Source of the DNA: a virus
Length of the DNA: 64,000 nt
Virus record (IMG/VR): IMGVR_UViG_3300037782_000115
Coordinates: 43,113-107,112 of that record
Direction: 5' to 3' (one strand)
Shown: positions 14,739 to 41,133 of the stretch, in pieces
Position numbering within the stretch: the stretch's first letter is position 1
How the letters are laid out: each line of letters opens with the position of its first letter
Made by a program: the position numbers and the translations under genes
Notes under the pieces: model-generated
The model's input: the letters and a program-made list of their open reading frames with translations, nothing else
The model's database searches: none
What the model was told of the DNA's origin: nothing

Positions 14739-15292
14739 CAGCGGCCCTCCATCCATGGGATCCGGCACAAGAGGCCGAGTTTCACGCCGAGTTCGAGAAA
14801 GTCGAACTCATCCACCATCGGATCGAAGTCGTAGTGTGTGGAAAAAGAACAACCGGTCTCGGCGTCGCAATTACAAAAGCCATCGTCGTCGGCATTGTCA
14901 CATGCACACTCTCCATATGTGATCTCACACCTGCCGACCCACAACGCGAAGTCCAGAAAATAAATTCCTGTCGACCCCTCATTTTCGACGAGAAAGTTCT
15001 TATCCCAGCCGGGCACGCAGTCGCCATCCAGCTCGAACGAATAGGAATCAAGGCCGAGTTCATACACGAGAGTACCAGGCACAATATCGTCGAACTCGGC
15101 GACACCAGAGTCGCCGTATCCATTAAGATTGATTCTTAAATAACCCGAATATCCAGACAATGCCAACATGGCGGCCGCATGATCGGCGTGCTCCATTCTA
15201 TCAACACCATGTGCAATGCAGGTCATGTGTATCTCTGCCAGGCTCAGGGAGGTGGCATTTTGCGTGTTTGTGTCATCCATAAAATCACCCAT
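14738..15292 (-). CDS. DUF6878-like protein
   Basis: GYGDSG motif and NEGSTG; adjacent to the DUF6915-like gene. Confidence 0.5.
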   Translation of the reverse strand: MGDFMDDTNTQNATSLSLAEIHMTCIAHGVDRMEHADHAAAMLALSGYSGYLRINLNGYGDSGVAEFDDIVPGTLVYELGLDSYSFELDGDCVPGWDKNFLVENEGSTGIYFLDFALWVGRCEITYGECACDNADDDGFCNCDAETGCSFSTHYDFDPMVDEFDFLELGVKLGLLCRIPWMEGR

Positions 15293-16481
15293 CAATCTTG
15301 ATCGTTGTGCCAAAGGGGGCAACCACATCGGACGTCATGCACCAGACCGTTGGCAGCCCGGGGTCTTGTTCGGGGAACCGCGTGTAGCCGTCAGTCATGC
15401 AGATCACGCATGAGGGTGCCGGGATGTTGTCGACGATGTGCCTAAACACCGGCACGTGCGAGGTGCCCCCGCCACCCTTGGGCTCGACCACGATATCGCC
15501 GTCGCTCGATCGCCACTCCTGCACGTGCGCCACGTCATGGTCGTGGTAAACGATGATTACGGTGCATGAGTATGACATAAGGATCTCTTGTATCTCGCCG
15601 GCGTACTGGTTGATCTCGTCTTGACCGATCGACCCGGACGTGTCAAAGGCGACAACCACGGTCCCGAGGCTGTCGCTGCGCATGCCGGGCAGATACATCC
15701 CGGCGTGGATGAAGCGGCGGTTGGGGTGGGCCCAAGAGAAGTCATCGCGTGAGGTCGATGAGACGAATCGGCGAAGAAGCTCTTTCCACGACGCCTTGGG
15801 CCGCAGCACGTCGCCGACGATACGAGAGATGTCGCCCGGCAGATCGCCGCGGCTGGACGCGTGATGCGCCGCCTCTGCGACATTGACTTGCCACTGAGCC
15901 TCTTGATTGTCGGTATCGCCGTCCGCCGGCCGGCGCACCTGGCCAAAGCCCCCCTCGCCACTACCGCCGCCACCGCCGCCACCACCGCCACCACCGCCAT
16001 CCTCATTATCCGGAATCCTGGCGTAGTACCACTCGGCGCTGTTGCCGCTCTCTAGGTCGGCATACTTGCCTTCGCCCGGGAACAGCCCGCCCGAGGGCAG
16101 CGATATACCGGCATCTCTGAGGATTGAGTTGATCGCCAGATCGCCCGCGACGTTCCAGTTGTGGTGCTCGCGGGGCCCCATCCGGGTGTGATGGCCGAGC
16201 GTGCAATGCATGAGCTCGTGCATAATCAGCCCAACGGTCTCGTTCCGAGACAGGCCGACGATGAACGATGGGTTGTACCGCATGGTCTTGCCGTCGATAT
16301 CGGCCGTCTCGATATCCCAGGAGGGCACCATGTTGATCTTCATGGCCAGGATGCAAAAGAACGAGCACCGCGGGTCGCGGCGGAGCGCGAGGTATGTCTT
16401 GGCCTCGGTTATCCGCGCATCACTGATATCCTCGTCGGCTTGCCGACGAGACATCTCATCGACCACATCAAAAGCGTCCAT
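15285..16481 (-). CDS. Metallopeptidase-like plus vWA domain protein (DUF2201-like)
   Basis: HELMH, WNVAGDLAIN, poly-Gly linker, DTSGS MIDAS motif, GGGGT, TDG. Confidence 0.88.
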   Translation of the reverse strand: MDAFDVVDEMSRRQADEDISDARITEAKTYLALRRDPRCSFFCILAMKINMVPSWDIETADIDGKTMRYNPSFIVGLSRNETVGLIMHELMHCTLGHHTRMGPREHHNWNVAGDLAINSILRDAGISLPSGGLFPGEGKYADLESGNSAEWYYARIPDNEDGGGGGGGGGGGGSGEGGFGQVRRPADGDTDNQEAQWQVNVAEAAHHASSRGDLPGDISRIVGDVLRPKASWKELLRRFVSSTSRDDFSWAHPNRRFIHAGMYLPGMRSDSLGTVVVAFDTSGSIGQDEINQYAGEIQEILMSYSCTVIIVYHDHDVAHVQEWRSSDGDIVVEPKGGGGTSHVPVFRHIVDNIPAPSCVICMTDGYTRFPEQDPGLPTVWCMTSDVVAPFGTTIKIDG

Positions 16482-16542
16482 AACAACTCCTTTCTAGAGA
16501 GCCAATGGCGTTCATCGCCGTCAAGCGGTGAACGCCGGTGTG

Positions 16543-17376
16543 TCAAAACGTCTGGGTCGTCGAGAGCGCGGTCCGCATGACGACGGCCTCAGAGATGGAC
16601 TCCTTGGTGATGTCCAGAACCTTCCGCATATCGCCCAGCGTTTCGCCCAGGATGCCCTCATACTCGAGCAGCCGCTTGCGAAGGCTGTCAGCCCGGGCCT
16701 CGCGGGCTTCGAGCGCGGCCTCGTGCAGGTCGCCGGTCTCGATGTCCTTCATGATCTGATCGACGTCACTCTGGATGTCGGCGAGGATCCCCTCCTTGAT
16801 CGCGCGGAGAGATGATGCGTCGGCGGCGGTCTGCATCACATGCACCATCGTTCCGGTACCGGCTTTCTCGACGATCCTGGCGTAGGTAGCCCAATCATCA
16901 AGCTTGTCCCTGGGGATCCAATACACGCCACCGCTCTCGCGGAGAGGGATGCCGCTAAGCCTGCTCACGGCGGTGGTGAGTAGATTGGTGATTGCCTTTG
17001 CGGGCACAACACCTGCCGACTTCTTGTACTGGTCCCTGACCCGGCATACCTCGGCCCAAGGCGCCGAGGGCGAACTCACGTTGCCGTCGTCGTCGACCTC
17101 GAAGGTATACCGAGAGTCGTACCGGTTCTCGTCCTGGCCGCGGTCCTCGGACACCACAGTGAAGCCATTCTTCTTGCTCAGGGGCCTGATAAGAGTGGTT
17201 TTGTTGGCGTAGAGGGCGACCAGCGCGGCGTTCAACACAGCCTTGGGCGTCTGCTGCTTTGGCATCAACCCGGACAGGCCGTTGTCGTCGAGTCCGCGTT
17301 CGAGGATGCTGCGGTCACTGTCGCTGCCGCGCCAGAAGGTCACGGCGCCATTGAGAGAGATCTGGCCAGACTTCAT
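16543..17376 (-). CDS. Hypothetical protein (DUF3150/DUF6744-like) in the AAA/vWA cluster
   Basis: LRESGGVYWIP motif; C-terminal coiled coil; strong RBS. Confidence 0.6.
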   Translation of the reverse strand: MKSGQISLNGAVTFWRGSDSDRSILERGLDDNGLSGLMPKQQTPKAVLNAALVALYANKTTLIRPLSKKNGFTVVSEDRGQDENRYDSRYTFEVDDDGNVSSPSAPWAEVCRVRDQYKKSAGVVPAKAITNLLTTAVSRLSGIPLRESGGVYWIPRDKLDDWATYARIVEKAGTGTMVHVMQTAADASSLRAIKEGILADIQSDVDQIMKDIETGDLHEAALEAREARADSLRKRLLEYEGILGETLGDMRKVLDITKESISEAVVMRTALSTTQTF

Positions 17377-17406
17377 GCGAAACTCCTTTCAAGGGAAACA
17401 TGGAAC

Positions 17407-17441
17407 AAAAGCGGCCTCGCCCCCTCTCGGGAGCGGACCGC
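17407..17441 (-). terminator. Possible intrinsic terminator
   Basis: GCGGTCCGCTCCC-GAGA-GGGGGCGAGGCCGC followed by TTTT on the minus strand. Confidence 0.5.
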
Positions 17442-17456
17442 TAGAAAGGAGCGGCG

Positions 17457-18476
17457 TTATGAGTCGGCTCTCGAGGCCATGATGACATCTGAGTTCTTGC
17501 CAACCCATTCCTTGATTCGTGGGTTCTTTTGGCTTCCCGGGCACACACGGATGAAGTCGAGAACGAGGTTGGTGGCAAACTCGTTCGGCAATCTCTGTCC
17601 ATATGTCATCGCTGCATCGAGATTGTTGTTATCCTCTCGGACGGCGTTCACCAGCGCCCCGCAGATGGCATAACGGACCGACGGCTCACCGGGGACGCCC
17701 TCGGTCTCTGGGTTGGCCAGGACGCGACGAATGTCCGGCAGGCTTTCGCAGATATTGACGTAGTTGACAAACTCTGCGGCGGGCCCGGAACCGACGCACC
17801 CGGCGACGGCCTGCAACAACAGGCTGCCGGGTGCGTGCTGGATAACCTCTGACGCACGCACCCACGACCGAGGTGTGGGGAATGCGTTCTCGGCTCCGGA
17901 CGGGTCGAAATCAAACAGCGCCGCCGGCTTGAATTTGATGAAGCTGGTCACCCGGTGATCAACGCCGGCGGCGACCGCCCAATTGTGCCAGTCGTCTGCG
18001 TTGTAGCACATCTCGAAGTGTGTCAGCCGATTGAGCATCGGCGTGATCATCTTGTGCGCACCAGCGCGATCGGTCGCACGGTTCGACGCCGCGACGATGG
18101 CGCAGTTGTCGGGGAGCTTGTAGTCGCCGATTCGGCGGTCGAGCAAGAGCTCCAGGCACGCGCTCTGCACAAGCGGCGGGGCCTGTGCAAACTCGTCGAG
18201 GAAGAACACCTCGGTTGAGTCCGGGTCCTGCGGCAGGAAGTCCGGCGGGCACCACTTCGTCAGCCCCTTGTCGCTGATGGAGGGGATGCCGCGGAGGTCA
18301 ACGGGGTCGAGCAGGACCGCCCGCACGTCGCGAACGGCGCGGCCGAGCTTTGCGGCGGCCTGCTTGACGATGTCTGACTTGCCGATGCCTGGGGGCCCCC
18401 ACAAGATCACGGGGTGCTTGTTGTTGATAAAGCCGGGCAGCAGACTCTCGATCTGCTTGGGTTGAAGCGGTGCCAT
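17457..18476 (-). CDS. MoxR-like AAA+ ATPase
   Basis: WGPPGIGKS, DLRGIP, FFLDE, AASN, NRLTH, FPTPRSW. Confidence 0.9.
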   Translation of the reverse strand: MAPLQPKQIESLLPGFINNKHPVILWGPPGIGKSDIVKQAAAKLGRAVRDVRAVLLDPVDLRGIPSISDKGLTKWCPPDFLPQDPDSTEVFFLDEFAQAPPLVQSACLELLLDRRIGDYKLPDNCAIVAASNRATDRAGAHKMITPMLNRLTHFEMCYNADDWHNWAVAAGVDHRVTSFIKFKPAALFDFDPSGAENAFPTPRSWVRASEVIQHAPGSLLLQAVAGCVGSGPAAEFVNYVNICESLPDIRRVLANPETEGVPGEPSVRYAICGALVNAVREDNNNLDAAMTYGQRLPNEFATNLVLDFIRVCPGSQKNPRIKEWVGKNSDVIMASRADS

Positions 18477-18577
18477 GGTTTCTCCTTTCATGGACGTATG
18501 CAGAAACACAAAAACCGCGAGCGTGATTTCTCACCCCCGCGGTCGCGGCTTTCAGCCAACAGGTGCGCCGGTCGGTC

Positions 18578-26289: not shown

Positions 26290-26366
26290 GGCAAGGCTCC
26301 TTCAATCTGCAAGGTGGCGAATTGGGTCAGCACACGCCGACCCGCCAGGTTGATGAAAAACGACAA

Positions 26367-26399
26367 GGGGGTGCTCGGGACGCTGCTCAGCCGGTAATA
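26367..26399 (+). repeat. Copy of the GGGGGTGCTCGGGACG-N11-GTAATA motif
   Basis: Exact 16-mer plus GTAATA. Confidence 0.7.
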
Positions 26400-26699
26400 C
26401 ATGGCGGTGGAGCAACGGGGGGTCCGCGGGGGCTCGGCGGGGGTGGGCTGGTTTGCCGTCCCACCTGGGTCATCGCCTCTGATCGGGGTCTGATCTCCCG
26501 ATCGGGGTCCATACGTGGCCCAAACAGGCCCGAATGCCGCGCGGCTAGCCAGGTACCAAACAGCGACCGAGCCGATTGATTCGGTTCGCGTGATGACCAT
26601 CCGACCAATGGGCGCGGTTGAGCCTTTGCCGTCGGTCAGTGTTTGGCGCAAGCTGGGCGCAGCTGGGCCCGTCCGCCCTGTCCGCCTAGGGCAGTCTCT

Positions 26700-27030
26700 G
26701 ACGGGCCCCCAAGGCCCCGGGCGAGTCTGAGCCCGACCGAGCAGGCCCGGGCCCCGCAGAGGCCCACACAGAGGCCCGCAGAGGCCCAGCTCGGATCTAG
26801 ACCGAGCCCGGGCCCCGCAGAGGCCCGCAGAGGCCCCGGGCGAGTCTGAGCCCGACCGAGCGCCTGCCCGACCGACCGGGCGGGACAAAGCCTTCCCGCC
26901 CGATCGACCGAGCGCCAGACTGAGCGCCGGGCCCGCGACCGAACGACCGAGCGCCGAACCGAGCGCGCATTCTGGGCAGAGATCGACCGAGCGCCCGAAT
27001 CCGAGCGCCGATCGATCAGCGCCGAACACG
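26700..27030. repeat. Complex short-repeat region
   Basis: 31-bp direct repeat AGGCCCCGGGCGAGTCTGAGCCCGACCGAGC (26712, 26831); multiple GCAGAGGCCC and GACCGAGCGC units; T-poor plus strand. Confidence 0.85.
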
Positions 27031-27173
27031 ACCGATTTGGCGAAGTGGTCAGCCCCAAAAACAAACAAGGCCCCGAATCGGGGCAAGTTGGGCGAATTGT
27101 GGCAGGTTGGTCGGGGGACCATAAACCCGCGCCCGATCTTTCGACCGAGCGCGGGCGGGAGAGTTTGCGGGGG

Positions 27174-28007
27174 TTACTTGCTGGTGGCCTTAGCCTGCGC
27201 CTTGGACGATTCGCCCTTGGGTGTCGGTTCGACGATCCCAGCCTGAAGCGCCCGCAGCACGTCCGCGATACCCGACACGACGGGTGCGGGGGTATCCTTG
27301 GGCAGGCTTGCCCCGGTGAAGACTTCCACCAGCTCGGACACGTCGCCATCGTGTTCGACGAACTGACGCGCCATGGTCAGCGCTGGAGCAGCGCCCGTTC
27401 CGAGCGCGTCAACAAACAGGGTGGCCCGGGCCTGATAGCCCGCAGCACTGGGCCCGCGCTTCACAGTCTCAAGCGCCGATTTCAGGGTGGGCGGGACAGA
27501 CGCTTGGGCCTTGGCGATTCTCTCAGCCTCAGCCTTGGCGCGGTCCGCCTCAGCCTTGACCAAATCGCACCCGCCAACCCGGGCGGAATCCAGCAAGGCA
27601 ACCAGCAAGGGGACGAGATTCGCACGGGCCTTGCCGACGTCGGTAATGCCCAGCTCCGACAAGGGGACGGACACCCCAACACTATCGCCGTCGATCAGCG
27701 AATCCGGCGCACGTTCTGCGGTGGGCAGAGGGGGGGCCTTGCCTTCGCCCTTCTCGCTTGCTGACAGGGCGCGGGCAAGCCTCAGAGCAGGGGCCTTGTC
27801 ATCACCCCCGACACCAACACCCACACCACCACTCGGTCGGTTGCGCCGCCACTCCCCGCAGTGACTGACGAAGCGCGGGGCCCGCACCACGAAAGACAGG
27901 GCGTCAGCATCGGGTAGCGTGAACCCGGTAGCGCCAAGGCCTTGCGGGGCCTTCTCCTGATCGGTGTTCTTGGTGTTGGTGGTATCGGTGTTCTTTGCGT
28001 CTTTCAT
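27174..28007 (-). CDS. Hypothetical Ala-rich protein, first gene of the leftward arm
   Basis: GGAG RBS; 277 aa. Confidence 0.6.
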   Translation of the reverse strand: MKDAKNTDTTNTKNTDQEKAPQGLGATGFTLPDADALSFVVRAPRFVSHCGEWRRNRPSGGVGVGVGGDDKAPALRLARALSASEKGEGKAPPLPTAERAPDSLIDGDSVGVSVPLSELGITDVGKARANLVPLLVALLDSARVGGCDLVKAEADRAKAEAERIAKAQASVPPTLKSALETVKRGPSAAGYQARATLFVDALGTGAAPALTMARQFVEHDGDVSELVEVFTGASLPKDTPAPVVSGIADVLRALQAGIVEPTPKGESSKAQAKATSK

Positions 28008-28521
28008 GGTTGAGACTCCAATAGGCCCCGGGGTGAATCGGTGGGAGTGGGGCCCATACTCCCGGTCTGCGGGACGTCCCACAAACGTAGGCCCAGCCTA
28101 CACCGGATCATCGGGCCCCGCTACCCTCTATCTCCATCATCCGAAAAAAAAATTTCAGCCCACCCCTATTTGGGCAAGCCCGGAATGCAAAGTGGCAGAG
28201 GCTAGCGCTAAACCGGGATCAGCAAGAATCACGCGGCAAGGCCCACTAGACCCGACACCCGGAAGGAACGACCATAACCCGGCGCTATCAATCGCATAGG
28301 CTCGGCTTATGGTCCCGATCAGCCTGCCCGATTCGCCACTCGCCCACCAACCGACCCGTCGGCGCGACCAACCGACCGGTCGACCGCGCGACCGAGCCCC
28401 GGGCCCCAAGCTCAGACCCCGGACCGTACGCCCAGAGGCCTTGGATCGGGCCTCGGACCGGACGGCTAGACCGATCGGCAAAGGGGACACTGGCAAGGTT
28501 GGGGTAGGGTGCCGTTAGCCT

Positions 28522-28560
28522 AACGCCACCCGACAAGACACTCTCCGAACGCCACCCGAC
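28522..28560 (+). repeat. 13-bp direct repeat AACGCCACCCGAC x2 (period 26)
   Basis: Copies at 28522-28534 and 28548-28560, at the strand-composition switch. Confidence 0.8.
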
Positions 28561-28708
28561 CAGGTACTGGCACTCAGCGGCTTACCCAATTTGTGGCGGT
28601 ATTTTCCAGCCCCTGTTTCGTTGTTTTTTTGGCTGGCGTTGTTCTTGGGGGTGTGGTCGTGTCGTGTTATTTTTGTGCGGGTATTTTTCTCGGGGAGTCG
28701 ATCGGGGT

Positions 28709-28738
28709 TTGACATGGATCTCAGTTGTCGTCTACGGT
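28709..28738 (+). promoter_or_regulatory. Sigma70-like promoter
   Basis: TTGACA-N18-TACGGT upstream of 28838. Confidence 0.55.
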
Positions 28739-28837
28739 GAAGTGGGGCCTGGTTTGTTGTGAGATCCCGCGGATCAGATGGGTTGGCGTAGTACCTGGGT
28801 CGGCGATTTTTTGGCGCGTTTTTTGGAGGCAGGAGAT

Positions 28838-29236
28838 ATGGATATTGCGTCTGTGGTTGCGGTGTCGAAGGGGCTTGAGCGGTTGGCGTTGGAGGTGGTG
28901 TTGTTTGAGCTCGAGCATTTGGATGGCGGCATGGCGAGACGTCGCGGTTTTTTGGTGTCGCGTGCGTGCAGGACTGTGATGGGCGAGTGCGGGGTCGCGA
29001 GCGAGCGTGCGGGGCTGGCGGCGGGCGTGCGGGAGGCGGTGGATGGGGCGATCGATGTCGCGATCCGGGAAGGGCTCGTGCGGGCGGATGATGGCCTGCT
29101 CACCTGGGTCGGGCCGGAGTTACCCATCGGGCGGGGCGAGAGGGCCGGCGACCGGGTCACGGATCTGGTCCAAGTCGCGGTGTTGGGTATGCTGCTCACC
29201 GCACTCGCCATGTTCTTTGTCCGACTCATCTTCTGA
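28838..29236 (+). CDS. Winged-helix-like protein with a C-terminal TM anchor (paralog 1)
   Basis: AGGAG RBS; AIDVAIREGLVRADDGLLTW; hydrophobic C-terminus. Confidence 0.6.
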   Translation: MDIASVVAVSKGLERLALEVVLFELEHLDGGMARRRGFLVSRACRTVMGECGVASERAGLAAGVREAVDGAIDVAIREGLVRADDGLLTWVGPELPIGRGERAGDRVTDLVQVAVLGMLLTALAMFFVRLIF

Positions 29237-29313
29237 TCGAGAGCAACCGACACGATCGGGTGGGGACCGTGTGTGGAGTGTGCGCTATTTCTGTCGATTC
29301 CATCGTCCGGGTA

Positions 29314-29342
29314 TTGACAAGGTAGTGGGTGCGCTGTACCGT
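29314..29342 (+). promoter_or_regulatory. Sigma70-like promoter
   Basis: TTGACA-N17-TACCGT. Confidence 0.65.
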
Positions 29343-29427
29343 GCGGTTCTCCCCGGGGACATGAGAGATTTCGGGCCCGAGAAGGGCATCGATCAGCAGA
29401 ATCGGGCCCGCTTTTTGGAGTCGCGAT

Positions 29428-29919
29428 ATGGATAACGAACGACCCGCCGCGAACCGCGTTGAGATTGGGCCCCGATTATGGCGATGGCCAGAGGCCGTAA
29501 AGGCGGTCTGCGAGGCCCTCTACACACACTCGACACCGCACGTCAGATCGATCGATCGCCAAGAGCTCGAGGAACTGGCCTTCCAGAAGATCATGAACGC
29601 GGGCGCCAACAGGCCCGCCGCCGTGGTCAGCCGAATGGTCATCCACTCGATCGATGAGTTGATCGAGCGACAGCACATCCGGGAGCTCGGGGGCGGAAAA
29701 AGCCTCTGCCTCACCCAGCTGGGCATCATGGAGTGCACGCCAACCCTCTATCTGACCCCCGAGCACTATGCGACCGGAACGCGGGCGAGTGCGCAGATCC
29801 CGGCGCCGCAGTGGCGACGGGCCACCTCCATCATCCGACTGGTCACCATGCTCGCAATGCCGGTTGTGCTCTACCTGGCGATCCAGGGCGCGAAGGTCGT
29901 GTTTGGAACGGGAGACTGA
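29428..29919 (+). CDS. Winged-helix-like protein with a C-terminal TM anchor (paralog 2)
   Basis: WRWPEAVKAVCEAL; SIDELIERQHI...LCLTQLG; TM near the C-terminus. Confidence 0.6.
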   Translation: MDNERPAANRVEIGPRLWRWPEAVKAVCEALYTHSTPHVRSIDRQELEELAFQKIMNAGANRPAAVVSRMVIHSIDELIERQHIRELGGGKSLCLTQLGIMECTPTLYLTPEHYATGTRASAQIPAPQWRRATSIIRLVTMLAMPVVLYLAIQGAKVVFGTGD

Positions 29920-29920
29920 T

Positions 29921-30826
29921 ATGGGAACCATCATCGCGGGCCGGGAATGGGAGTCGCCAGAAGGCGCGTTGGCGGTGATCGACGCGATTTGCAAGGCGGG
30001 CTATGAAACCGCGGCGGATCTATCCGAGCCGGCGCGAGAATTACTGATCTCCGAGGCCGCCGATGCGCTGCTCGGATCCAGGGTCGGGCTCGAGCGGACA
30101 TCGAGAACACGCGCCGCCGCCGGCTTCGAAGACCTGCTCAGGCTCGAGCTCATCATCAAACACGACGACCACTACCTCATCACCGGCCTCGTCGACGAGT
30201 GGTACCGGGTTCGATGCGCGTTGCGCTCGCACCTCCGAGCCGCGGCCGTCGAGGCCCAGGTCGCCACAAGGATGTCGGCGCGCGGGCCAGACCGCAAAGA
30301 CGACCCCAGAAATTACATCGACGACGAAGTCGATTTTGTAGGGAGTAAACAGATGGGAGATCACAAAGCGAATTCGCCCCACAAAGGGGCGGAAGTCATC
30401 CGGGCTGTGCTGAAAAAATATGGGTGCGGCCCGACATCGGGCGGCATGAGCAAAGAAGGATTGCTGGCAAGAGCCGTGGACACATTGGAGGCACAGTGCT
30501 CCGAAAGGGGGCCGACCCTTCAAGCCATCGCAACGGAGGGCCTCGGTCTACTTCTCGAAAGCGGCGATGTCGAAAGCGTCGACGGCATTATTAGGCTGCG
30601 CGTTGCGACCGCCCCAAGCGGCATTCCAGCCGGCGGCGAAACCAACTGCGACCGGCTCGCCTCCGACAGGGCCGCGTGTCAAGCCGCTGTGTCACGGGCC
30701 GAGGGTGCTTCCGCCTACGCCAACAAGATCCTGCCATGGGTTCTCGGCCTCGCCATTGCGGTCCAGGTCTGCGCCCTGGTCATCGTGGTGCTGGCGGCGA
30801 TGGCGATTGTTCGCATCATGGGCTGA
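29921..30826 (+). CDS. Protein with two winged-helix-like repeats and a C-terminal TM anchor (paralog 3)
   Basis: WESPEGALAVIDAI; FEDLLRLELI..HYLITG; LGLLLESGDV..GIIRL; long hydrophobic C-terminus. Confidence 0.65.
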   Translation: MGTIIAGREWESPEGALAVIDAICKAGYETAADLSEPARELLISEAADALLGSRVGLERTSRTRAAAGFEDLLRLELIIKHDDHYLITGLVDEWYRVRCALRSHLRAAAVEAQVATRMSARGPDRKDDPRNYIDDEVDFVGSKQMGDHKANSPHKGAEVIRAVLKKYGCGPTSGGMSKEGLLARAVDTLEAQCSERGPTLQAIATEGLGLLLESGDVESVDGIIRLRVATAPSGIPAGGETNCDRLASDRAACQAAVSRAEGASAYANKILPWVLGLAIAVQVCALVIVVLAAMAIVRIMG

Positions 30827-30855
30827 GACTCACGATCGATTCACGGGAGGTCAGC

Positions 30856-31338
30856 ATGGACGATCGAGAAGCACAGGCGGCCGAAGGCGGGGAACCGATG
30901 TTCTGGCGGTCGGCCGAGGGCGCGTACGCAGTCATCCAGGCGCTCAAGGGCAAGGACACCCTGCGCAGTGTGCACCACGACACGTTGATCCACTGCGCGG
31001 CGGAATCGATCGCGACCGAGACCGGCGAGAGCCCATGGTGGTCCCACCTCCAGGCGATGTTTGGGCTCGAGGACGCCGTACAAAACGGGGTCATCATCGA
31101 ATCGTCGGGAAGGTATTACCACCTGGCCAACAACGGGGAAGTGCCCCACAGATTGCTCGTCGATCTCCGGGTCGCCCGCAATCAAGAGCAGGACGCCAGG
31201 GCGCTGGGGTCATCACCGACAAGGCGAGAAAGCATCGGCATCGGCGCTGCGGCGGCGCTCTACGTCATGACGTGGGTCGCCGCGGCGATTCTGTTGGCGG
31301 CATTGATCAACCACGTATGCAACACACTCCGGTCATGA
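30856..31338 (+). CDS. Winged-helix-like protein with a C-terminal TM anchor (paralog 4)
   Basis: GGGAGG RBS; WRSAEGAYAVIQAL; GLEDAVQNGVIIESSGRYYHL; TM. Confidence 0.65.
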   Translation: MDDREAQAAEGGEPMFWRSAEGAYAVIQALKGKDTLRSVHHDTLIHCAAESIATETGESPWWSHLQAMFGLEDAVQNGVIIESSGRYYHLANNGEVPHRLLVDLRVARNQEQDARALGSSPTRRESIGIGAAAALYVMTWVAAAILLAALINHVCNTLRS

Positions 31339-31351
31339 AGGACGGGCGAAC

Positions 31352-31894
31352 ATGGAGAGGGTGATGACAGAGACAAAGGCAGTATGTCACGGGTGCAAAG
31401 CGGCTGGCGGTGACGGTAAAGACCCGGCAGCCGTGCGCACTGTGTCCACGAAGAGCCTCCTGCTGACACGCGGCCAGAGGGCAGAGACGATCGCTTGTGA
31501 CGCGGCGCTCTCGGCGTACAAGAACGGGGTCTGGTTGTCGCAACCAGACTTTCGAGAGGAGGTTGTTGGGCAGATTATGGTCCACACTGCGGCCTGGAAG
31601 GCGTTTCTTACAGAGAACAAGGGCAAGGTTGTCGTGGTCGATGAGAAAGACGAATCCGGCGCGACGATCAGGGCGTCGGCGGCGATATCAGAGCTAATTC
31701 TGGCCGGCTATTTCGATATTCGCGACGATGACGAGGGACGCGCCACACTGAGGCTGAACAAGCGTGGTGCTCGCTACGCCAAGAAGGTTGTGCGAGGGTA
31801 CGACCTCGTCGATTTCATCGGCGGGATCGTGCTGAACATAATCTTCTCGGCGATGTTCCTCGCGATCATAGGTTATTGGGTCAAGCCAATCTGA
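31352..31894 (+). CDS. Winged-helix-like protein with a C-terminal TM anchor (paralog 5)
   Basis: AISELILAGYF...LRLNKRG; C-terminal TM. Confidence 0.6.
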   Translation: MERVMTETKAVCHGCKAAGGDGKDPAAVRTVSTKSLLLTRGQRAETIACDAALSAYKNGVWLSQPDFREEVVGQIMVHTAAWKAFLTENKGKVVVVDEKDESGATIRASAAISELILAGYFDIRDDDEGRATLRLNKRGARYAKKVVRGYDLVDFIGGIVLNIIFSAMFLAIIGYWVKPI

Positions 31895-31940: not shown

Positions 31941-32234
31941 ATGATTCTCGACTGGAAAACATCAAAAGAAGACACGCTCGTGATCACAAAGATCGCCCGC
32001 CGGGCGATAGATGACGGCGTCACCGATGACGACATGCTCACGGTCAGCATGGACCTGACGGCGGTGCATCTTTCGGTCGGCCTCGAGCTGGCCAACCTCC
32101 TGGCCGCGCCGGCCGACGAATTCCGGCACGACATCGAGGGGATCCAGGAGAACATCAACCGCAGAACCGGCGAGCTCGCCGGGTGCTTTGTGCCCAGATA
32201 CGCGACACCGCAGGCCGAGAAGGGCGGCAAGTGA
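31941..32234 (+). CDS. DUF6874-like phage protein
   Basis: MDLTAVH...LLAA...FRHDIEGI..NINR.TG.L..CFVPRY. Confidence 0.65.
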   Translation: MILDWKTSKEDTLVITKIARRAIDDGVTDDDMLTVSMDLTAVHLSVGLELANLLAAPADEFRHDIEGIQENINRRTGELAGCFVPRYATPQAEKGGK

Positions 32235-36641: not shown

Positions 36642-37107
36642 GGACGCGACGGGTGCTCTACACAGGTTCATGTTGCATGCGGCGTGCAATCCGGAGTTAG
36701 GCGGCATTTCTCTGCCCGAAACCATCGTGAAGTGTGTGATTAGCAACACAACCAGCAAGGGCCGCGGCGCCAGGGCGGTCTTATACAGAAACATGTATGT
36801 GGATACGCGCGATATCGGCATCATTGAGTATGGCATGATTGTGAACATAGTGACCTCTGTATTGATGAGCGAGGTTGACAGACTGCACAACCTGAGCGGG
36901 CGCGCCGGCGGCCAGGCGGCAAACATCATGACAAAGCAGAAGATGTCCACAGCAGCCGAGAGGATGGTGGTAGACGAAATAAGCAAACTCGAGAAGAAAG
37001 GAGATCTCGTAGTAGCGATGATCAATCCAACTGACGACACACTAGAGGTCTGGCTACGCCATAAAGATGTGTCGTTCCGTGAACCAGCGGGGCGGATGCC
37101 GCTATGA
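36616..37107 (+). CDS. Hypothetical protein, possibly winged-helix-like (start uncertain)
   Basis: EISKLEKKGDLVV. Confidence 0.5.
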   Translation: MRPPTNKHEDATGALHRFMLHAACNPELGGISLPETIVKCVISNTTSKGRGARAVLYRNMYVDTRDIGIIEYGMIVNIVTSVLMSEVDRLHNLSGRAGGQAANIMTKQKMSTAAERMVVDEISKLEKKGDLVVAMINPTDDTLEVWLRHKDVSFREPAGRMPL

Positions 37108-37472
37108 CAATCGTCGACACGATCGATGGGTCGGACTACGTGGATGCCGCGTGCATCACGGCGGTGTCGCGTATAACAAGCGATGGTTATGTGCCAGAAT
37201 ACATAGCCGTGGTCGACATGGCCGCAGCCAGCCTCGGCGGCGGCCTGGTGCGAGGCAAGAGCGCGGCATCATCGGTCAAGCATTCGCTGGAACGTCTGGT
37301 TTCACAGGGGTACCTAGAGATCGATCAGATCACTGTCATAAAGGGCTCGCCCATCGGGGTCTTGTTGAAGCTCACTAAGAAGGGCGAGTCCTTACAGAAA
37401 ACGGCGGCCGAAACGAGCAAGAGAGCGGAGCAATTTCTAGCAAGGTCGGCGGCCGAGGAGCGCTTTGAATGA
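37104..37472 (+). CDS. Winged-helix-like protein (no TM)
   Basis: SLERLVSQGYLE...LLKLTKKG MarR-like wing pattern. Confidence 0.6.
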   Translation: MTIVDTIDGSDYVDAACITAVSRITSDGYVPEYIAVVDMAAASLGGGLVRGKSAASSVKHSLERLVSQGYLEIDQITVIKGSPIGVLLKLTKKGESLQKTAAETSKRAEQFLARSAAEERFE

Positions 37473-37864
37473 ACAACGTGTGGAAGCGACCAGAGGGTAT
37501 GACGAAGCGGCGATGGGCCAGGTACATCAAGGCCATGGTCTATGTTCTCGAGCAACTTAACAAGTCCAGTGACATAACGAGAAGTAAACTCGTCGAAGTC
37601 GCGAGCAAAGCAAATGCCAACGACGGCGCCATCGTCAGTCAATTAATCGCAATCGGCTCTGTCAACCGGCTGGTCGACCACGGCATGGTTGTGTACGAGC
37701 GCAGTTGTGGCTGCAAAAACAACAGACTGATGTTTATCACTAACAGAGGCATTAGGGAGATGGCCAGAGCCAACAGGCGTGCCGGGCTAAGGAGAGTGTT
37801 GGCCGCGCTGGCCGTCGCTACGGCGTGTGGTGTGATAGCTTTTTTAATCGGATACTTGCAGTAG
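37469..37864 (+). CDS. Winged-helix-like protein with a C-terminal TM anchor (paralog 6)
   Basis: WKRPEG; ITRSKL; SVNRLVDHGMV...FITNRG; C-terminal TM. Confidence 0.65.
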   Translation: MNNVWKRPEGMTKRRWARYIKAMVYVLEQLNKSSDITRSKLVEVASKANANDGAIVSQLIAIGSVNRLVDHGMVVYERSCGCKNNRLMFITNRGIREMARANRRAGLRRVLAALAVATACGVIAFLIGYLQ

Positions 37865-37876: not shown

Positions 37877-37963
37877 GAAGTGGGCAAGGCCAGGCGAGAA
37901 GGAGAAGCCGATGCCTCAGACACCGAATGGACTCTCGGCGCCAGCGAAAGGGGATGTCTCGCG

Positions 37964-38437
37964 ATGAAGACCGCGTGGCACATGTCGGGGTGGGTGGCGA
38001 TCGCGACGGTTATGGCGACGGCCACGGCGGCCGCGAGCATCAGCATTGATGGATCCGTGACCAGGGCGGTTATGATGGCGGTGGTCGCGTTCAGCATCAT
38101 CGGGATGTTTGAGTCGATGGTGAACAAGACCAGGTCCTACCCGGTTTATATGGCGATCGTCTGGTTCAACAACGCCAGGTTCGTCTCTGAGGTGGCTGGC
38201 GCCGGTCCGGTGTGGTCGGTCGTAATCGGCGCCGTGGCGCTCCTGCTGGCGGCGTGGTTCGGAGTGATGTATCTTTACGCCAGCAGGTCGCACACCGAAG
38301 GCGACGGCGGAGACCATCAATGCTCAGAATCACCGGACAGCTGGCCACAATCAGGTGCCCACAGTGTAATGGGGTCGGCCGGGTGCCGATGGACCAGACG
38401 TACACAGTCAGAACGGGAACACCCGGCACACCACTGA
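37964..38437 (+). CDS. Multi-pass membrane protein
   Basis: 3-4 hydrophobic segments. Confidence 0.55.
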   Translation: MKTAWHMSGWVAIATVMATATAAASISIDGSVTRAVMMAVVAFSIIGMFESMVNKTRSYPVYMAIVWFNNARFVSEVAGAGPVWSVVIGAVALLLAAWFGVMYLYASRSHTEGDGGDHQCSESPDSWPQSGAHSVMGSAGCRWTRRTQSEREHPAHH

Positions 38438-38750: not shown

Positions 38751-38853
38751 TGGCACACAAAAAGGACCACAACCGCCGATACACGTGCGTCTAGTGTTGT
38801 GGCGGGGCGTCCGTCTACACCGATAACACCAACTCGTGCGGGACGGACTGATA

Positions 38854-39459
38854 ATGTTTTGGGACTCACTCTTACAGCATTGGCAATCAGCGGCCCTTAT
38901 CGCCGGCGCAATCGGGTTCTTCATCGCACTCAGGGGCTTTGGCGAGTTTGTCAGACAGTTCAGCATGACCCAGGTCGAGATGCTGCGGGCGATCGTCAAA
39001 AACGAGGCGGTCGAGATCAAGCAGCACGCCGAGCAGGCGGTTATCAGAACCAATGGCTACCCGGCTCTGTGCTTGCAGAATTCCCCCTTTCCATTCTGGT
39101 ACAAGGAATACGTCGGCGGCGGCTTCGTGATGAAGAGCATCAACCCGGCGTACACCAAGCTGTTTGGCGTCACCCAAGAGGAGTACGTCGGCAAGTCCGA
39201 CGATGCGCTGTGGCCGAAGGCCACCGCCGAGATGATGAGAACCAACGACCAGACGGTCTACGTGACCGGTCGACAGCTCAGAACGATCGAGAGCCTGCCG
39301 GACAACCCCGCAGACCCGAACTCGCCAATGACGCAATGGCTGGTTGTTAAATACCCGGTGCCATCATCTGAGGGCGGCATCAAGGGTGTAGCCGGCACCT
39401 GCTACCCGCTGGAAAAATTCGACAAGATCATCGTCTCGACCCTGCCCTCGATCATCTAG
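38854..39459 (+). CDS. Membrane-anchored PAS-domain protein
   Basis: N-terminal TM; NSPFPFWYKE...INPAYTKLFG...YVGKSDDALWP..TA....ND..V...G..., VVKYPV...GVAG (PAS_4-like). Confidence 0.8.
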   Translation: MFWDSLLQHWQSAALIAGAIGFFIALRGFGEFVRQFSMTQVEMLRAIVKNEAVEIKQHAEQAVIRTNGYPALCLQNSPFPFWYKEYVGGGFVMKSINPAYTKLFGVTQEEYVGKSDDALWPKATAEMMRTNDQTVYVTGRQLRTIESLPDNPADPNSPMTQWLVVKYPVPSSEGGIKGVAGTCYPLEKFDKIIVSTLPSII

Positions 39460-39466
39460 ACCGCTG

Positions 39467-39495
39467 TTGACATACCAGTCCGAAACCAGTACGAT
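39467..39495 (+). promoter_or_regulatory. Sigma70-like promoter
   Basis: TTGACA-N17-TACGAT. Confidence 0.7.
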
Positions 39496-39543: not shown

Positions 39544-41133
39544 ATGAAATCAACAGGCCTGATCGTCGACAACTTTGCTGGCGCCGGTGGCGCGAGCGTG
39601 GGCATCGAGAGCGCTATGGGAAGGAAGGTCGATTACGCGATCAACCACGACCCAGAGGCGATAGAGACCCACGTTGCGAATCACCCGAACACCAAGCACT
39701 TGATCGAGGATGTCTTCGATGTCGACCCGCGTGAGCTATGTGCTGGGCGACCGGTCGACCTAGCCTGGTTCAGCCCAGACTGCACACACCATTCACGAGC
39801 AAAAGGCGGCAAGCCACGCGACAACAAGCGGCGAGGTCTCGCGTGGGTTGTCATTCGGTGGGCCGCAACAGTTCGTCCCAAAGTCATCATGCTCGAGAAT
39901 GTCCCGGAGTTCCAGACGTGGGGCCCGCTCAACAGCGACGGACAGCCGTGCAAACGCCGGACTGGAGAAACATTTAGGTCGTGGGTCGGCGAGCTGCGCC
40001 AACTCGGGTACGACGTGCAATGGCGAGAGCTCGTTGCCGCAGACTATGGCGCACCGACGATCCGCAAACGACTCTTTCTCGTCGCCAGGTGCGACGGCGA
40101 ACCGATCCGGTGGCCGACGCCGACGCACGCGCCGCGCCACAAGGCGGTCGTTCTTGGCCTTGAGCCATGGAGGTCGGCGGCAGACTGCATTGACTGGTCG
40201 CTCCCGATGCTCTCGATCTTTGCCACGCCGGACGAGGCCAAAGAGTGGGCCAGGGCCAACGGGGTGTCGGCGCCAAGGCGTCCGCTCGCAGACGCAACGC
40301 TGCGTCGCATCGCCCGGGGCGTGATGCGGTTTGTTGTCGAGTCGGATGACCCGTTCGTAGTGACGTACGCGCAGCATGGTGGATCATCACGCAGCCCATC
40401 AGAGCCGATGCACACGATCACAGCCAGCGGCAAGGACCAGAACTGCATCGCAGTCCCAACCCTGATCCAGACCGGGCACGGCGAGAGAAAAGGTCAGAAG
40501 CCGCGCAGCCTCGACATACACGCCCCCCTCGGCACCTGTGTCGCCGGTGGGTGCAAGCACGGCCTGGTGTCGGCGATGTTGTCCAAGCACAACGGAAAGA
40601 CCACGGGGCAGAGGGCGTCAGATCCGCTTCACACCATCGCCGGCAACATCAACAAAAGTCTTGTCGCCTGCTCTCTCGAGAAGATGCGTGGCACTGGCCG
40701 CGGCGGCAGCCTGCGAGAACCTGCGCCTACGCAGACCGCGGGAGGAAACCACGCCGGCCTCGTGTGCGCGTTCTTGCAGAAGTATTACGGCAGCACAAAA
40801 GATGGCGCCCCAATGGATTCTCCGATGCACACAGTGTCGTGCACCGATAGATTCGGACTGGTCACCGTGGCCGGGCATGACTACATGATCGGCGATATTT
40901 CAATGAGGATGCTACAACCGCACGAGCTGTTGAAGGCTCAGTTCGGACGATTCGCCAGTGGCTACACATTGCTCGGCACCAAACGCAGGCAGGTGTCGTC
41001 CGTGGGCAACAGCGTATGCCCAGAGGTTGCGTACGCACTCGTATCGGCGAACTTCTTGAGGAACAACGTGTCATCTCATGTCGGAATCCACGCAGATGCG
41101 AAGTCGCCCACGGCAAAGCAGGTGATCTCATGA
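39544..41133 (+). CDS. C5 cytosine DNA methyltransferase (phage type with a long variable region)
   Basis: DNFAGAGG, SPDC, ENV, R.RLF, GNSV. Confidence 0.95.
   Translation: MKSTGLIVDNFAGAGGASVGIESAMGRKVDYAINHDPEAIETHVANHPNTKHLIEDVFDVDPRELCAGRPVDLAWFSPDCTHHSRAKGGKPRDNKRRGLAWVVIRWAATVRPKVIMLENVPEFQTWGPLNSDGQPCKRRTGETFRSWVGELRQLGYDVQWRELVAADYGAPTIRKRLFLVARCDGEPIRWPTPTHAPRHKAVVLGLEPWRSAADCIDWSLPMLSIFATPDEAKEWARANGVSAPRRPLADATLRRIARGVMRFVVESDDPFVVTYAQHGGSSRSPSEPMHTITASGKDQNCIAVPTLIQTGHGERKGQKPRSLDIHAPLGTCVAGGCKHGLVSAMLSKHNGKTTGQRASDPLHTIAGNINKSLVACSLEKMRGTGRGGSLREPAPTQTAGGNHAGLVCAFLQKYYGSTKDGAPMDSPMHTVSCTDRFGLVTVAGHDYMIGDISMRMLQPHELLKAQFGRFASGYTLLGTKRRQVSSVGNSVCPEVAYALVSANFLRNNVSSHVGIHADAKSPTAKQVIS

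Follow-up and report, generated by a model that had tools for sequence, protein, structure and literature searches.

Six predicted tail-anchored proteins, four of them sharing a modelled winged-helix domain, in an uncultured tailed phage

The six genes, their predicted membrane anchors and the promoter-like sites in front of them

The DNA stretch analysed in this work (64,000 nucleotides (nt), called the window below) is the last 64 kb of the IMG/VR virus record IMGVR_UViG_3300037782_000115, a 107,112-bp sequence which has terminal repeats and is rated complete. It comes from an uncultured tailed phage, which encodes a GpA-type large terminase (TerL), a T4-like portal and a prohead protease; the GC content of the genome is 60%, and a crude whole-genome gene call yielded about 122 genes. 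The genes are directed leftward up to about 28.1 kb of the window; starting at 28.8 kb the direction is rightward and leads into the packaging and head genes. At the head of this rightward unit there is a row of five genes (g1 to g5, here called the array) whose products end in a single hydrophobic segment of transmembrane (TM) length, and a sixth gene of the same layout (g6) is found 5.6 kb downstream of the array. An earlier note on this DNA interpreted the six as membrane-tethered paralogs with a MarR-like winged helix-turn-helix (wHTH) domain. The analysis described here upheld the membrane-anchored layout and the grouping of the genes, limited the paralogy and the modelled fold to a part of the set, and did not sustain the MarR assignment.

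All six genes are on the plus strand. The first, g1 (28838-29236), encodes a protein of 132 amino acids (aa) with the TM segment at about residues 108-128 (nt 29159-29221). The product of g2 (29428-29919) is 163 aa long and consists of an N-terminal WxxPE motif, a predicted winged helix and a TM segment at residues 134-152 (nt 29827-29883). The largest protein, g3 (29921-30826, 301 aa), has a predicted winged-helix domain at about residues 10-95 (g3N), which is followed by a charged linker; its C-terminal half (g3C) contains a possible degenerate second copy of the domain at about residues 160-235, and the TM segment occupies residues 273-297 (nt 30737-30811). The TM segments of g4 (30856-31338, 160 aa), the protein whose structure was modelled, and of g5 (31352-31894, 180 aa) are at residues 133-151 (nt 31252-31308) and 155-173 (nt 31814-31870), respectively. 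In g6 (37469-37864, 131 aa) the TM segment (residues 110-128, nt 37796-37852) begins only about 12 residues past the wing. The genes of the array are separated by gaps of 191 nt (g1-g2), 1 nt (g2-g3), 29 nt (g3-g4) and 13 nt (g4-g5).

The six open reading frames (ORFs) listed in the earlier note are genuine genes by three kinds of evidence. In all of them the GC content at third codon positions (GC3, 0.67-0.80; 0.79 in g1) exceeds that at second positions (GC2, 0.43-0.50), which is the coding signature of this genome. All six starts are preceded, at a distance of 6-10 nt, by a Shine-Dalgarno-like GGAG or GGAGG sequence (in g1 AGGAG, 8 nt before the ATG), and public gene calls hold proteins identical to g2, g3, g4 and g6. 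The public call for g5 is 176 aa instead of 180 aa, which would move the start of this gene from 31352 to 31364. Two antisense ORFs offered by a crude caller (29520-29738 and 30841-31185) were rejected as mirror artefacts of GC3, because the public gene calls match the sense genes.

Each of the six proteins has exactly one 19-residue window with a Kyte-Doolittle value above 2.0 (range 2.09-2.96), and in all cases the hydrophobic segment ends 3-11 residues before the C-terminus; in g1 the value is 2.42 and the segment ends 4 aa from the C-terminus. There is no signal peptide and no other TM segment, thus all six have the layout of C-tail-anchored proteins, in agreement with the earlier description. 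In a single-sequence AlphaFold2 prediction of g3 the C-terminal helix had a predicted local distance difference test (pLDDT) score of 80-93, whereas the rest of that model was unreliable (overall pLDDT 42). Every TM helix is preceded by two to five Arg or Lys residues and followed by none or one, an excess which fits a topology with the N-terminal domain in the cytoplasm. From these features the six proteins are predicted to be inserted into the membrane in N-in/C-out orientation.

In bacteria this kind of layout is known from TssL of the type VI secretion system, a C-tail-anchored protein whose insertion depends on YidC (PMC3426401). Like the proteins described here, TssL has a single C-terminal TM helix, a cytoplasmic N-terminal domain and no signal peptide, and it can serve as a model for their insertion. 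Unlike them, it is a host protein, and its cytoplasmic domain and function are unrelated. In the crude gene call of the whole phage genome we found no other gene with a single-TM, tail-anchored layout, and five of the six stand side by side in an unbroken row. We estimate the chance of such an arrangement at about 1e-6 to 1e-5; the adjacency of the five genes is far beyond chance.

The earlier note had placed the genes at the head of a rightward unit, behind two TTGACA elements (28709 and 29314). Both elements are there, and each is followed 17-18 nt further on by a hexamer resembling a -10 element. P1 (28709-28738, plus strand) reads TTGACA-N18-TACGGT and lies about 100 nt upstream of g1, whereas P2 (29314-29342, plus strand), TTGACA-N17-TACCGT, is within the 191-nt gap ahead of g2. 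A third site of this kind (39467-39495, plus strand; TTGACA-N17-TACGAT) is just upstream of a C5 cytosine methylase gene (39544-41133). In all three the -10 element starts with TAC. Matches to the generic pattern TTGACA-N16-18-TANNNT number three in the window, as opposed to 0.27 expected, and four in the genome, so that two of the genome's four consensus-type promoter-like sites front the array. All four are on the plus strand, and the three in the window precede plus-strand genes. A strict, TATAAT-based sigma-70 scan called neither P1 nor P2. It is plausible that P1 and P2 are host-type promoters of a high-GC host. The earlier note's claim that the proteins are made first in infection goes too far; judging by the promoter-like sites and the position of the array, the genes may be transcribed early.

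The leftward gene next to the array (27174-28082) is flanked by two non-coding stretches (26290-27173 and 28083-28837), which are dense in short direct repeats. The repeats are GACCGAGCGC (at least five times), GCAGAGGCCC (about five times), AACGCCACCCGAC (twice) and ACCAACCGACC (twice). The repeat-rich stretches could contain an origin or binding sites of a regulator, and they would be candidate targets if one of the array proteins binds DNA.

The four-member family and its predicted fold

Relatedness of the proteins was assessed by pairwise Smith-Waterman alignment of the soluble parts, in comparison with 300 shuffles. Scores well above background were obtained for g2-g4 (z 5.7), g2-g6 (z 6.2) and g3N-g4 (z 7.2). 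All other pairs were at background with the exception of g1-g3C (z 3.4), a relation which we rejected because the alignment is Ala-rich and out of register with the motif. The domains of g2, g3N, g4 and g6 align collinearly with 24-30% identity, and they have in common an N-terminal W-x-x-[PA]-E-[GA] motif, in which the W and the E are invariant. The longer motif W-x-x-x-E-[GA]-x-x-A-V-x-x-A-[LI], which had been noticed in three of the proteins, is indeed present in g2, g3 and g4, and g6 has W-x-x-P-E-G. The positions conserved in the family are in helix 1 and in the hydrophobic core, whereas helix 3 and the wing vary both in sequence and in charge. When a profile made from the four paralogs was run against every ORF of the genome (HMMER, all filters off), it recovered these four alone. 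At the level of sequence g2, g3N, g4 and g6 can thus be demonstrated to form one diverged paralogous family.

The idea of six paralogs applies to these four and does not extend to g1 and g5, for which Smith-Waterman shuffling, hhalign and hmmsearch detected no sequence relation to the family. None of the hhalign comparisons with the family profile was significant (E 0.58 for g5, 0.18 for g1, 0.39 for g3C and 0.025 for a small protein encoded immediately upstream of g6). The rest, g1, g5 and g3C, share with the family only the architecture and a short motif. The earlier suggestion that g3 holds two copies of the domain looks plausible by eye and received no statistical support from Smith-Waterman alignment, hhalign or the family profile; even with the filters off, the profile matched g3 in one stretch and did not find a second domain.

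The small protein upstream of g6 (37104-37472, plus strand, 122 aa) is soluble. Its gene overlaps the start of g6 in an ATGA sequence, which suggests translational coupling of the two. It has the helix-wing motif LERLVSQGYLE...LKLTKKGE and gave weak matches to Fe_dep_repress (E 0.038) and LdtR (E 0.062). This protein may be an unanchored partner or a relative of g6.

A structural model was made for residues 1-125 of g4 as a monomer, using AlphaFold2 and an alignment of the four paralogs. The mean pLDDT was 77.5 (74-95 in the core) and the predicted template modelling score (pTM) was 0.68. The model consists of helix 1 (residues 20-32), strand 1 (39-40), helix 2 (41-56), helix 3 (60-76), a hairpin (80-83/87-90) and a linker helix (98-118), that is, it has the H1-b1-H2-H3-b2-b3 topology of winged helices, which can be carried over to g2, g3N and g6 by homology. 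An exhaustive comparison with 48,161 PDB representatives (VIA) returned winged-helix domains for all of the best 50 matches (Z 6.5-8.7); the root-mean-square deviation was 2.1-2.5 Å over 64-78 residues, and nearly the whole of these small domains was covered. The highest Z scores belonged to the cullin WHB domain (8.7), the linker histones H1/H5 (7.8-8.3), the winged helices of Hel308 (8.1) and KAT6A (7.9), and RPA32C (7.6), and they were followed by domains of ORC/Cdc6, MukF/JetA, TubR, Fur, PadR-like and MarR proteins between 6.5 and 7.5. In the BFVD viral structure library only weak matches to generic winged helices were found.

The generic winged helices at the top of the list (3o6b, cullin WHB; 2lso and 1hst, linker histone; 2va8, Hel308; 7y43 and 8e4v, KAT6A/MORF; 4mqv, RPA32C) have the same topology as the g4 model (Z 7.6-8.7), but their identity to it is 8-16%, there is no profile relation, and none of them is anchored in a membrane. 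The best matches are a mixture of winged helices which bind proteins (cullin WHB, RPA32C, MCM-C, MukF/JetA) and winged helices which bind DNA. Since the ligands of such domains range from DNA to proteins, the match names the fold and not the function.

According to the model, the family core (g2, g3N, g4 and g6) can be assigned the winged-helix fold with confidence, which agrees, for these four, with the wHTH fold that had been proposed for the whole set; the support comes from AlphaFold2 in combination with Foldseek and VIA. For g5 there is a lead from the ESM Atlas, whose model of this protein (pTM 0.61) has PadR, HTH_24/MarR, MukF, JetA and SarS structures as neighbours at TM-scores of 0.41-0.49. 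Winged helices make up eight of the ten neighbours, and g5 is probably a winged helix, too. No usable model was obtained for g1 and g3C, and the case for a winged helix in g1 is at the level of the motif. The helix-G-strand-turn-strand pattern on which the original proposal was based can be read in all six proteins, and in the four-member family it is backed by the model. The g4 result also shows that the fold of an ORFan can be predicted with confidence once four diverged paralogs from a single genome are aligned.

The closer assignment to MarR was not borne out. Like MarR and PadR proteins, the array proteins have an L-x-x-x-G-hydrophobic ... T-x-x-G pattern in helix 3 and the wing, and structures of these two groups were matched at Z 6.5-7.2. 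Unlike MarR, the g4 model lacks flanking dimerisation helices, and the array proteins are membrane-anchored and in several cases acidic. MarR structures (Z 6.5-6.9) ranked below the generic winged helices (Z 7.5-8.7), a gap which is within the noise of the method and was obtained with a monomer model only. Pfam, NCBIfam and PDB sequence profiles gave no match that would support a MarR relationship. A six-frame search of the 107-kb genome with MarR_2, PadR and HTH_24 (E<=10) found no match to these profiles in the array, and no match to PadR anywhere. The only MarR_2/HTH_24 matches in the genome, two weak ones (E 1e-6 and 1e-3, below the cut-off), are in its structural arm (positions 17638-17814 and 28431-28523), outside the window.

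One has to consider that the grouping of the six genes is in part coincidental, i.e. that the four-member family is the only real unit, that g1 and g5 are unrelated neighbours, and that the motif has been over-read in helices rich in Leu and Gly. The helix-wing motif is short and degenerate, and g1 and g5 were silent in all three tests against the family profile, as this explanation would predict. It accounts poorly for a genome which is otherwise free of tail-anchored proteins, yet has five of them in an uninterrupted row, and for the predominance of winged helices among the neighbours of the g5 model. Moreover, where g1, g3C and the 37104-37472 protein match the profile best in local hhalign alignments, the columns are in each case those of helix 3 and the wing. 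We regard a coincidental grouping as distinctly improbable.

Relatives of the family and of the phage

A HMMER search of 1.84 billion representative proteins with the family profile returned the four genes of the phage itself (E 1e-26 to 4e-58). The sole further match, a eukaryotic leucine-rich repeat protein, was judged spurious. Word-index searches with g4 and with g5 each retrieved the query only. Searches of Pfam, PHROGs and NCBIfam with the six proteins yielded nothing usable (E<=1 for Pfam and NCBIfam); the lone PHROG match, at E 3e-4, was between the wing-to-TM part of g4 and phrog_21944, a family of unknown function. Neither the family profile nor g5 had a significant match among PDB sequences, and no syntenic relative was found when IMG/VR was scanned using g3, TerL alone or the DUF6874 gene next to the array. 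As judged by these sequence searches, the family is an ORFan.

The phage is very distant from cultured phages: the best TerL identity to them is 22-28%, and 10 kb of the phage DNA had no megablast match among them. A TerL scan of genome contigs found no prophage relative, therefore it gave no clue to the host. The identical phage sequence is carried by pond metagenomes, and the sequencing runs listed for it include no RNA run. In four further pond runs there was not a single difference across the array, thus there was no microdiversity on which selection could be tested.

More closely related are the members of an uncultured phage clade, with 42-65% TerL identity (proteins P0008-P0033), whose sources include microbial-mat and other metagenomes. 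The clade shares a syntenic module consisting of a small upstream gene, TerL, portal, protease and major capsid genes (loci L005, L008, L014 and L016), and the regions upstream of TerL are variable. Five members are on contigs of 93-110 kb. On the fragments with TerL relatives we found neither a tail-anchored array nor a match to the family; these fragments cover no more than 17 kb of the DNA upstream of TerL, and the distance to the array in our phage is 18.5-21.5 kb. If the TerL relatives have equivalents of the array, these would have diverged beyond detection by the profile. The lack of a family homolog in spite of TerL relatives at 42-65% identity suggests a fast turnover, which is typical of host-interaction genes, although TerL relatives and family homologs were sought in different libraries, and the early genes of the relatives are not shown to be among the representatives searched.

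In the literature searched and in the viral structure library we found no description of a phage module like this array. Winged helices and tail anchors are ordinary when taken individually. A tandem, phage-private set of tail-anchored winged helices appears, as far as our literature and structure searches reach, to be undescribed.

Possible roles at the membrane and neighbouring genes

We give tentative preference to the interpretation that the proteins are tail-anchored adaptors which work at the cytoplasmic membrane of the host and have diversified targets. The genes would be transcribed by host RNA polymerase from the two TTGACA-type promoters. Each protein would be made in the cytoplasm and then inserted post-translationally via its C-terminal helix, the common route of bacterial C-tail-anchored proteins. 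Only 3-11 residues would then protrude on the outer side, and a domain of 100-270 residues would face the cytoplasm. In g2, g3, g4 and g6 this domain would be the same much-diverged winged-helix module, which would have arisen by tandem duplication in the phage lineage. The members would differ in the cytoplasmic ligand that they bind and retain at the membrane, and would in this way take part in the takeover of the host or in counter-defence; the ligands would be host proteins in the case of the acidic members and perhaps nucleic acid in that of the basic ones. Diversified specificity is suggested by the fact that helix 3 and the wing, the usual ligand face, vary while the motif and the core are kept. 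That ligands are captured, and what they might be, is inferred. The adaptor interpretation is the simplest account of the facts.

A bolder proposal, which we find rather doubtful, is that the genes encode a battery of winged-helix 'traps', each of which would be specialised for another target (a host protein of defence, regulation or the nucleoid, or a nucleic acid) and would pull it from the cytoplasm to the membrane early in infection. If this were true, it would mean takeover or anti-defence by spatial sequestration, a strategy that is not known to have been described for phages, with tandem duplication and a rapidly diverging binding face as its mode of evolution. Members capturing host factors or DNA would also be a source of small modular membrane-recruitment domains.

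Several observations weigh against the adaptor interpretation. The g4 model was built from only four paralog sequences. The top rows of the Foldseek search were also winged helices, but their E-values were weak (best 0.044), and Z scores of 7-8 are the usual best values for models without a clear match. As such scores are unexceptional, we put the weight on the unanimity of the list and on the near-complete coverage of the domains rather than on single rows. Since g1 and g3C have no fold evidence, the six proteins may not share one function. Finally, the activity could reside in the TM helices.

The last point can be developed into an explanation of its own: the C-terminal helix would act as the effector, in superinfection exclusion, in the timing of lysis, or by interference with host membrane complexes such as the divisome, transporters or membrane-bound defence, and the soluble domain would only oligomerise or regulate. 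When phages encode small membrane proteins in their early or accessory regions, these often serve in exclusion or in interference with the host. Even g1 and g5, unrelated to the others by sequence, possess the tail anchor, and no other feature is common to all six proteins; the abundance of the small residues Ala and Gly suits the TM helices to helix packing; and a multi-TM protein is encoded directly after g6 (37880-38437). On the other hand, the conserved positions of the family are in the soluble domain and not in the TM helix, and a mere handle would hardly need to be a folded cytoplasmic domain as large as 100-270 residues. With 3-11 residues on the outer side, the proteins offer nothing that an incoming phage could meet there, and any recognisable lysis cassette is far away from the genes. 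On balance, we consider it quite unlikely that the TM helix is the effector.

The adaptor interpretation must also be compared with the possibility, raised in the earlier note, that the proteins are tethers, fixing phage or host DNA to the membrane for replication, transcription or immobilisation of the nucleoid, possibly via the neighbouring repeats. The winged helix is the commonest DNA-binding fold of prokaryotes, and the structural matches of the g4 model include DNA-bound H1/H5, KAT6A, SAMD1, DpnI, TubR, Fur and MarR; it must be noted that protein-binding winged helices match equally well. The charge of the proteins points in both directions. The isoelectric points (pI) calculated for the soluble parts are 5.2 (g1), 7.8 (g2), 5.3 (g3), 5.3 (g4), 8.8 (g5) and 10.7 (g6). 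The basic proteins g6 and g5 are the strongest cases for DNA binding, whereas the overall character of g1, g3 and g4 is acidic (pI about 5.2), which speaks against DNA binding by these members. In helix 3 there are five Lys or Arg residues in g3 (in g3N, counted over a longer segment around the helix), one each in g2 and g6, and none in g4, where the net charge of the helix is -2 and the wing has one Arg. With three acidic soluble parts and one very basic one, it is unlikely that DNA binding is uniform among the array proteins. The two non-coding stretches with dense repeats (26.3-27.2 and 28.1-28.8 kb) adjoin the array, as one would wish for tethers, but no DNA-binding wHTH profile matched the proteins even when the search space was a single genome, and six diverged copies exceed what anchoring would seem to need.

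There is a precedent for phage proteins with such a role. The protein p16.7 of the Bacillus phage phi29 has an N-terminal TM segment and a homeodomain-like, dimeric DNA-binding domain. According to PMC4974454 (with Serna-Rico et al. 2003 as cited there), p16.7 and p1 are early phage membrane proteins which anchor replicating DNA. The proteins described here resemble p16.7 in being small phage proteins with one membrane helix and a cytoplasmic ligand-binding domain which would recruit its ligand to the membrane, the early expression being, in our case, suggested by the promoter-like sites. They differ from it in that p16.7 is encoded by a single gene, whereas here there are six diverged genes, the anchor is C-terminal, the domain is a predicted winged helix, and PDB sequence searches gave no match. 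By analogy, p16.7 and p1 can be regarded as the nearest functional precedent. As a general explanation of the six genes we consider DNA tethering unlikely.

The combination of a cytoplasmic winged helix with one TM helix is also reminiscent of ToxR, CadC and TcpP, and bitopic wHTH regulators provide a precedent. The phage proteins could be membrane-tethered transcription regulators following a ToxR/CadC-like logic without the sensor, kept active or inactive at the membrane, perhaps released by proteolysis, and timing the switch between gene classes. The fold and the position of the array at a divergent promoter region would agree with this. However, ToxR, CadC and TcpP have an OmpR-type wHTH and a periplasmic sensor, whereas the proteins described here have no match to Trans_reg_C or to any other regulator profile, and the 3-11 residues after their TM helix leave no room for a periplasmic domain. 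Several members are acidic, and six proteins in a row without a conserved recognition helix are unlike known phage switches. A role as regulators seems very improbable to us, and we retain the adaptor interpretation as the preferred one.

Some of the neighbouring genes deserve mention. The gene following the array (31941-32234, plus strand) encodes a DUF6874 protein (Pfam E 1.5e-19). Its only relatives in IMG/VR (42% identity; L002 and L003) are in unrelated neighbourhoods, which makes it look like a mobile accessory gene. The multi-TM protein encoded directly downstream of g6 (37880-38437, plus strand; ORF of 185 aa) has two or more segments of strong hydrophobicity and no family match; its true start may be an internal Met near residue 29. 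The 207-aa product of a gene further downstream (38836-39459, plus strand) includes a PAS_4 domain (E 8.8e-10); to find a sensory fold in the early or middle region of a phage is unusual. In the leftward part of the window (15285-18509, minus strand) a MoxR-like AAA ATPase (17457-18509) is encoded close to a DUF2201 metallopeptidase/VWA protein (15285-16481), a pairing that is also unusual in phages.

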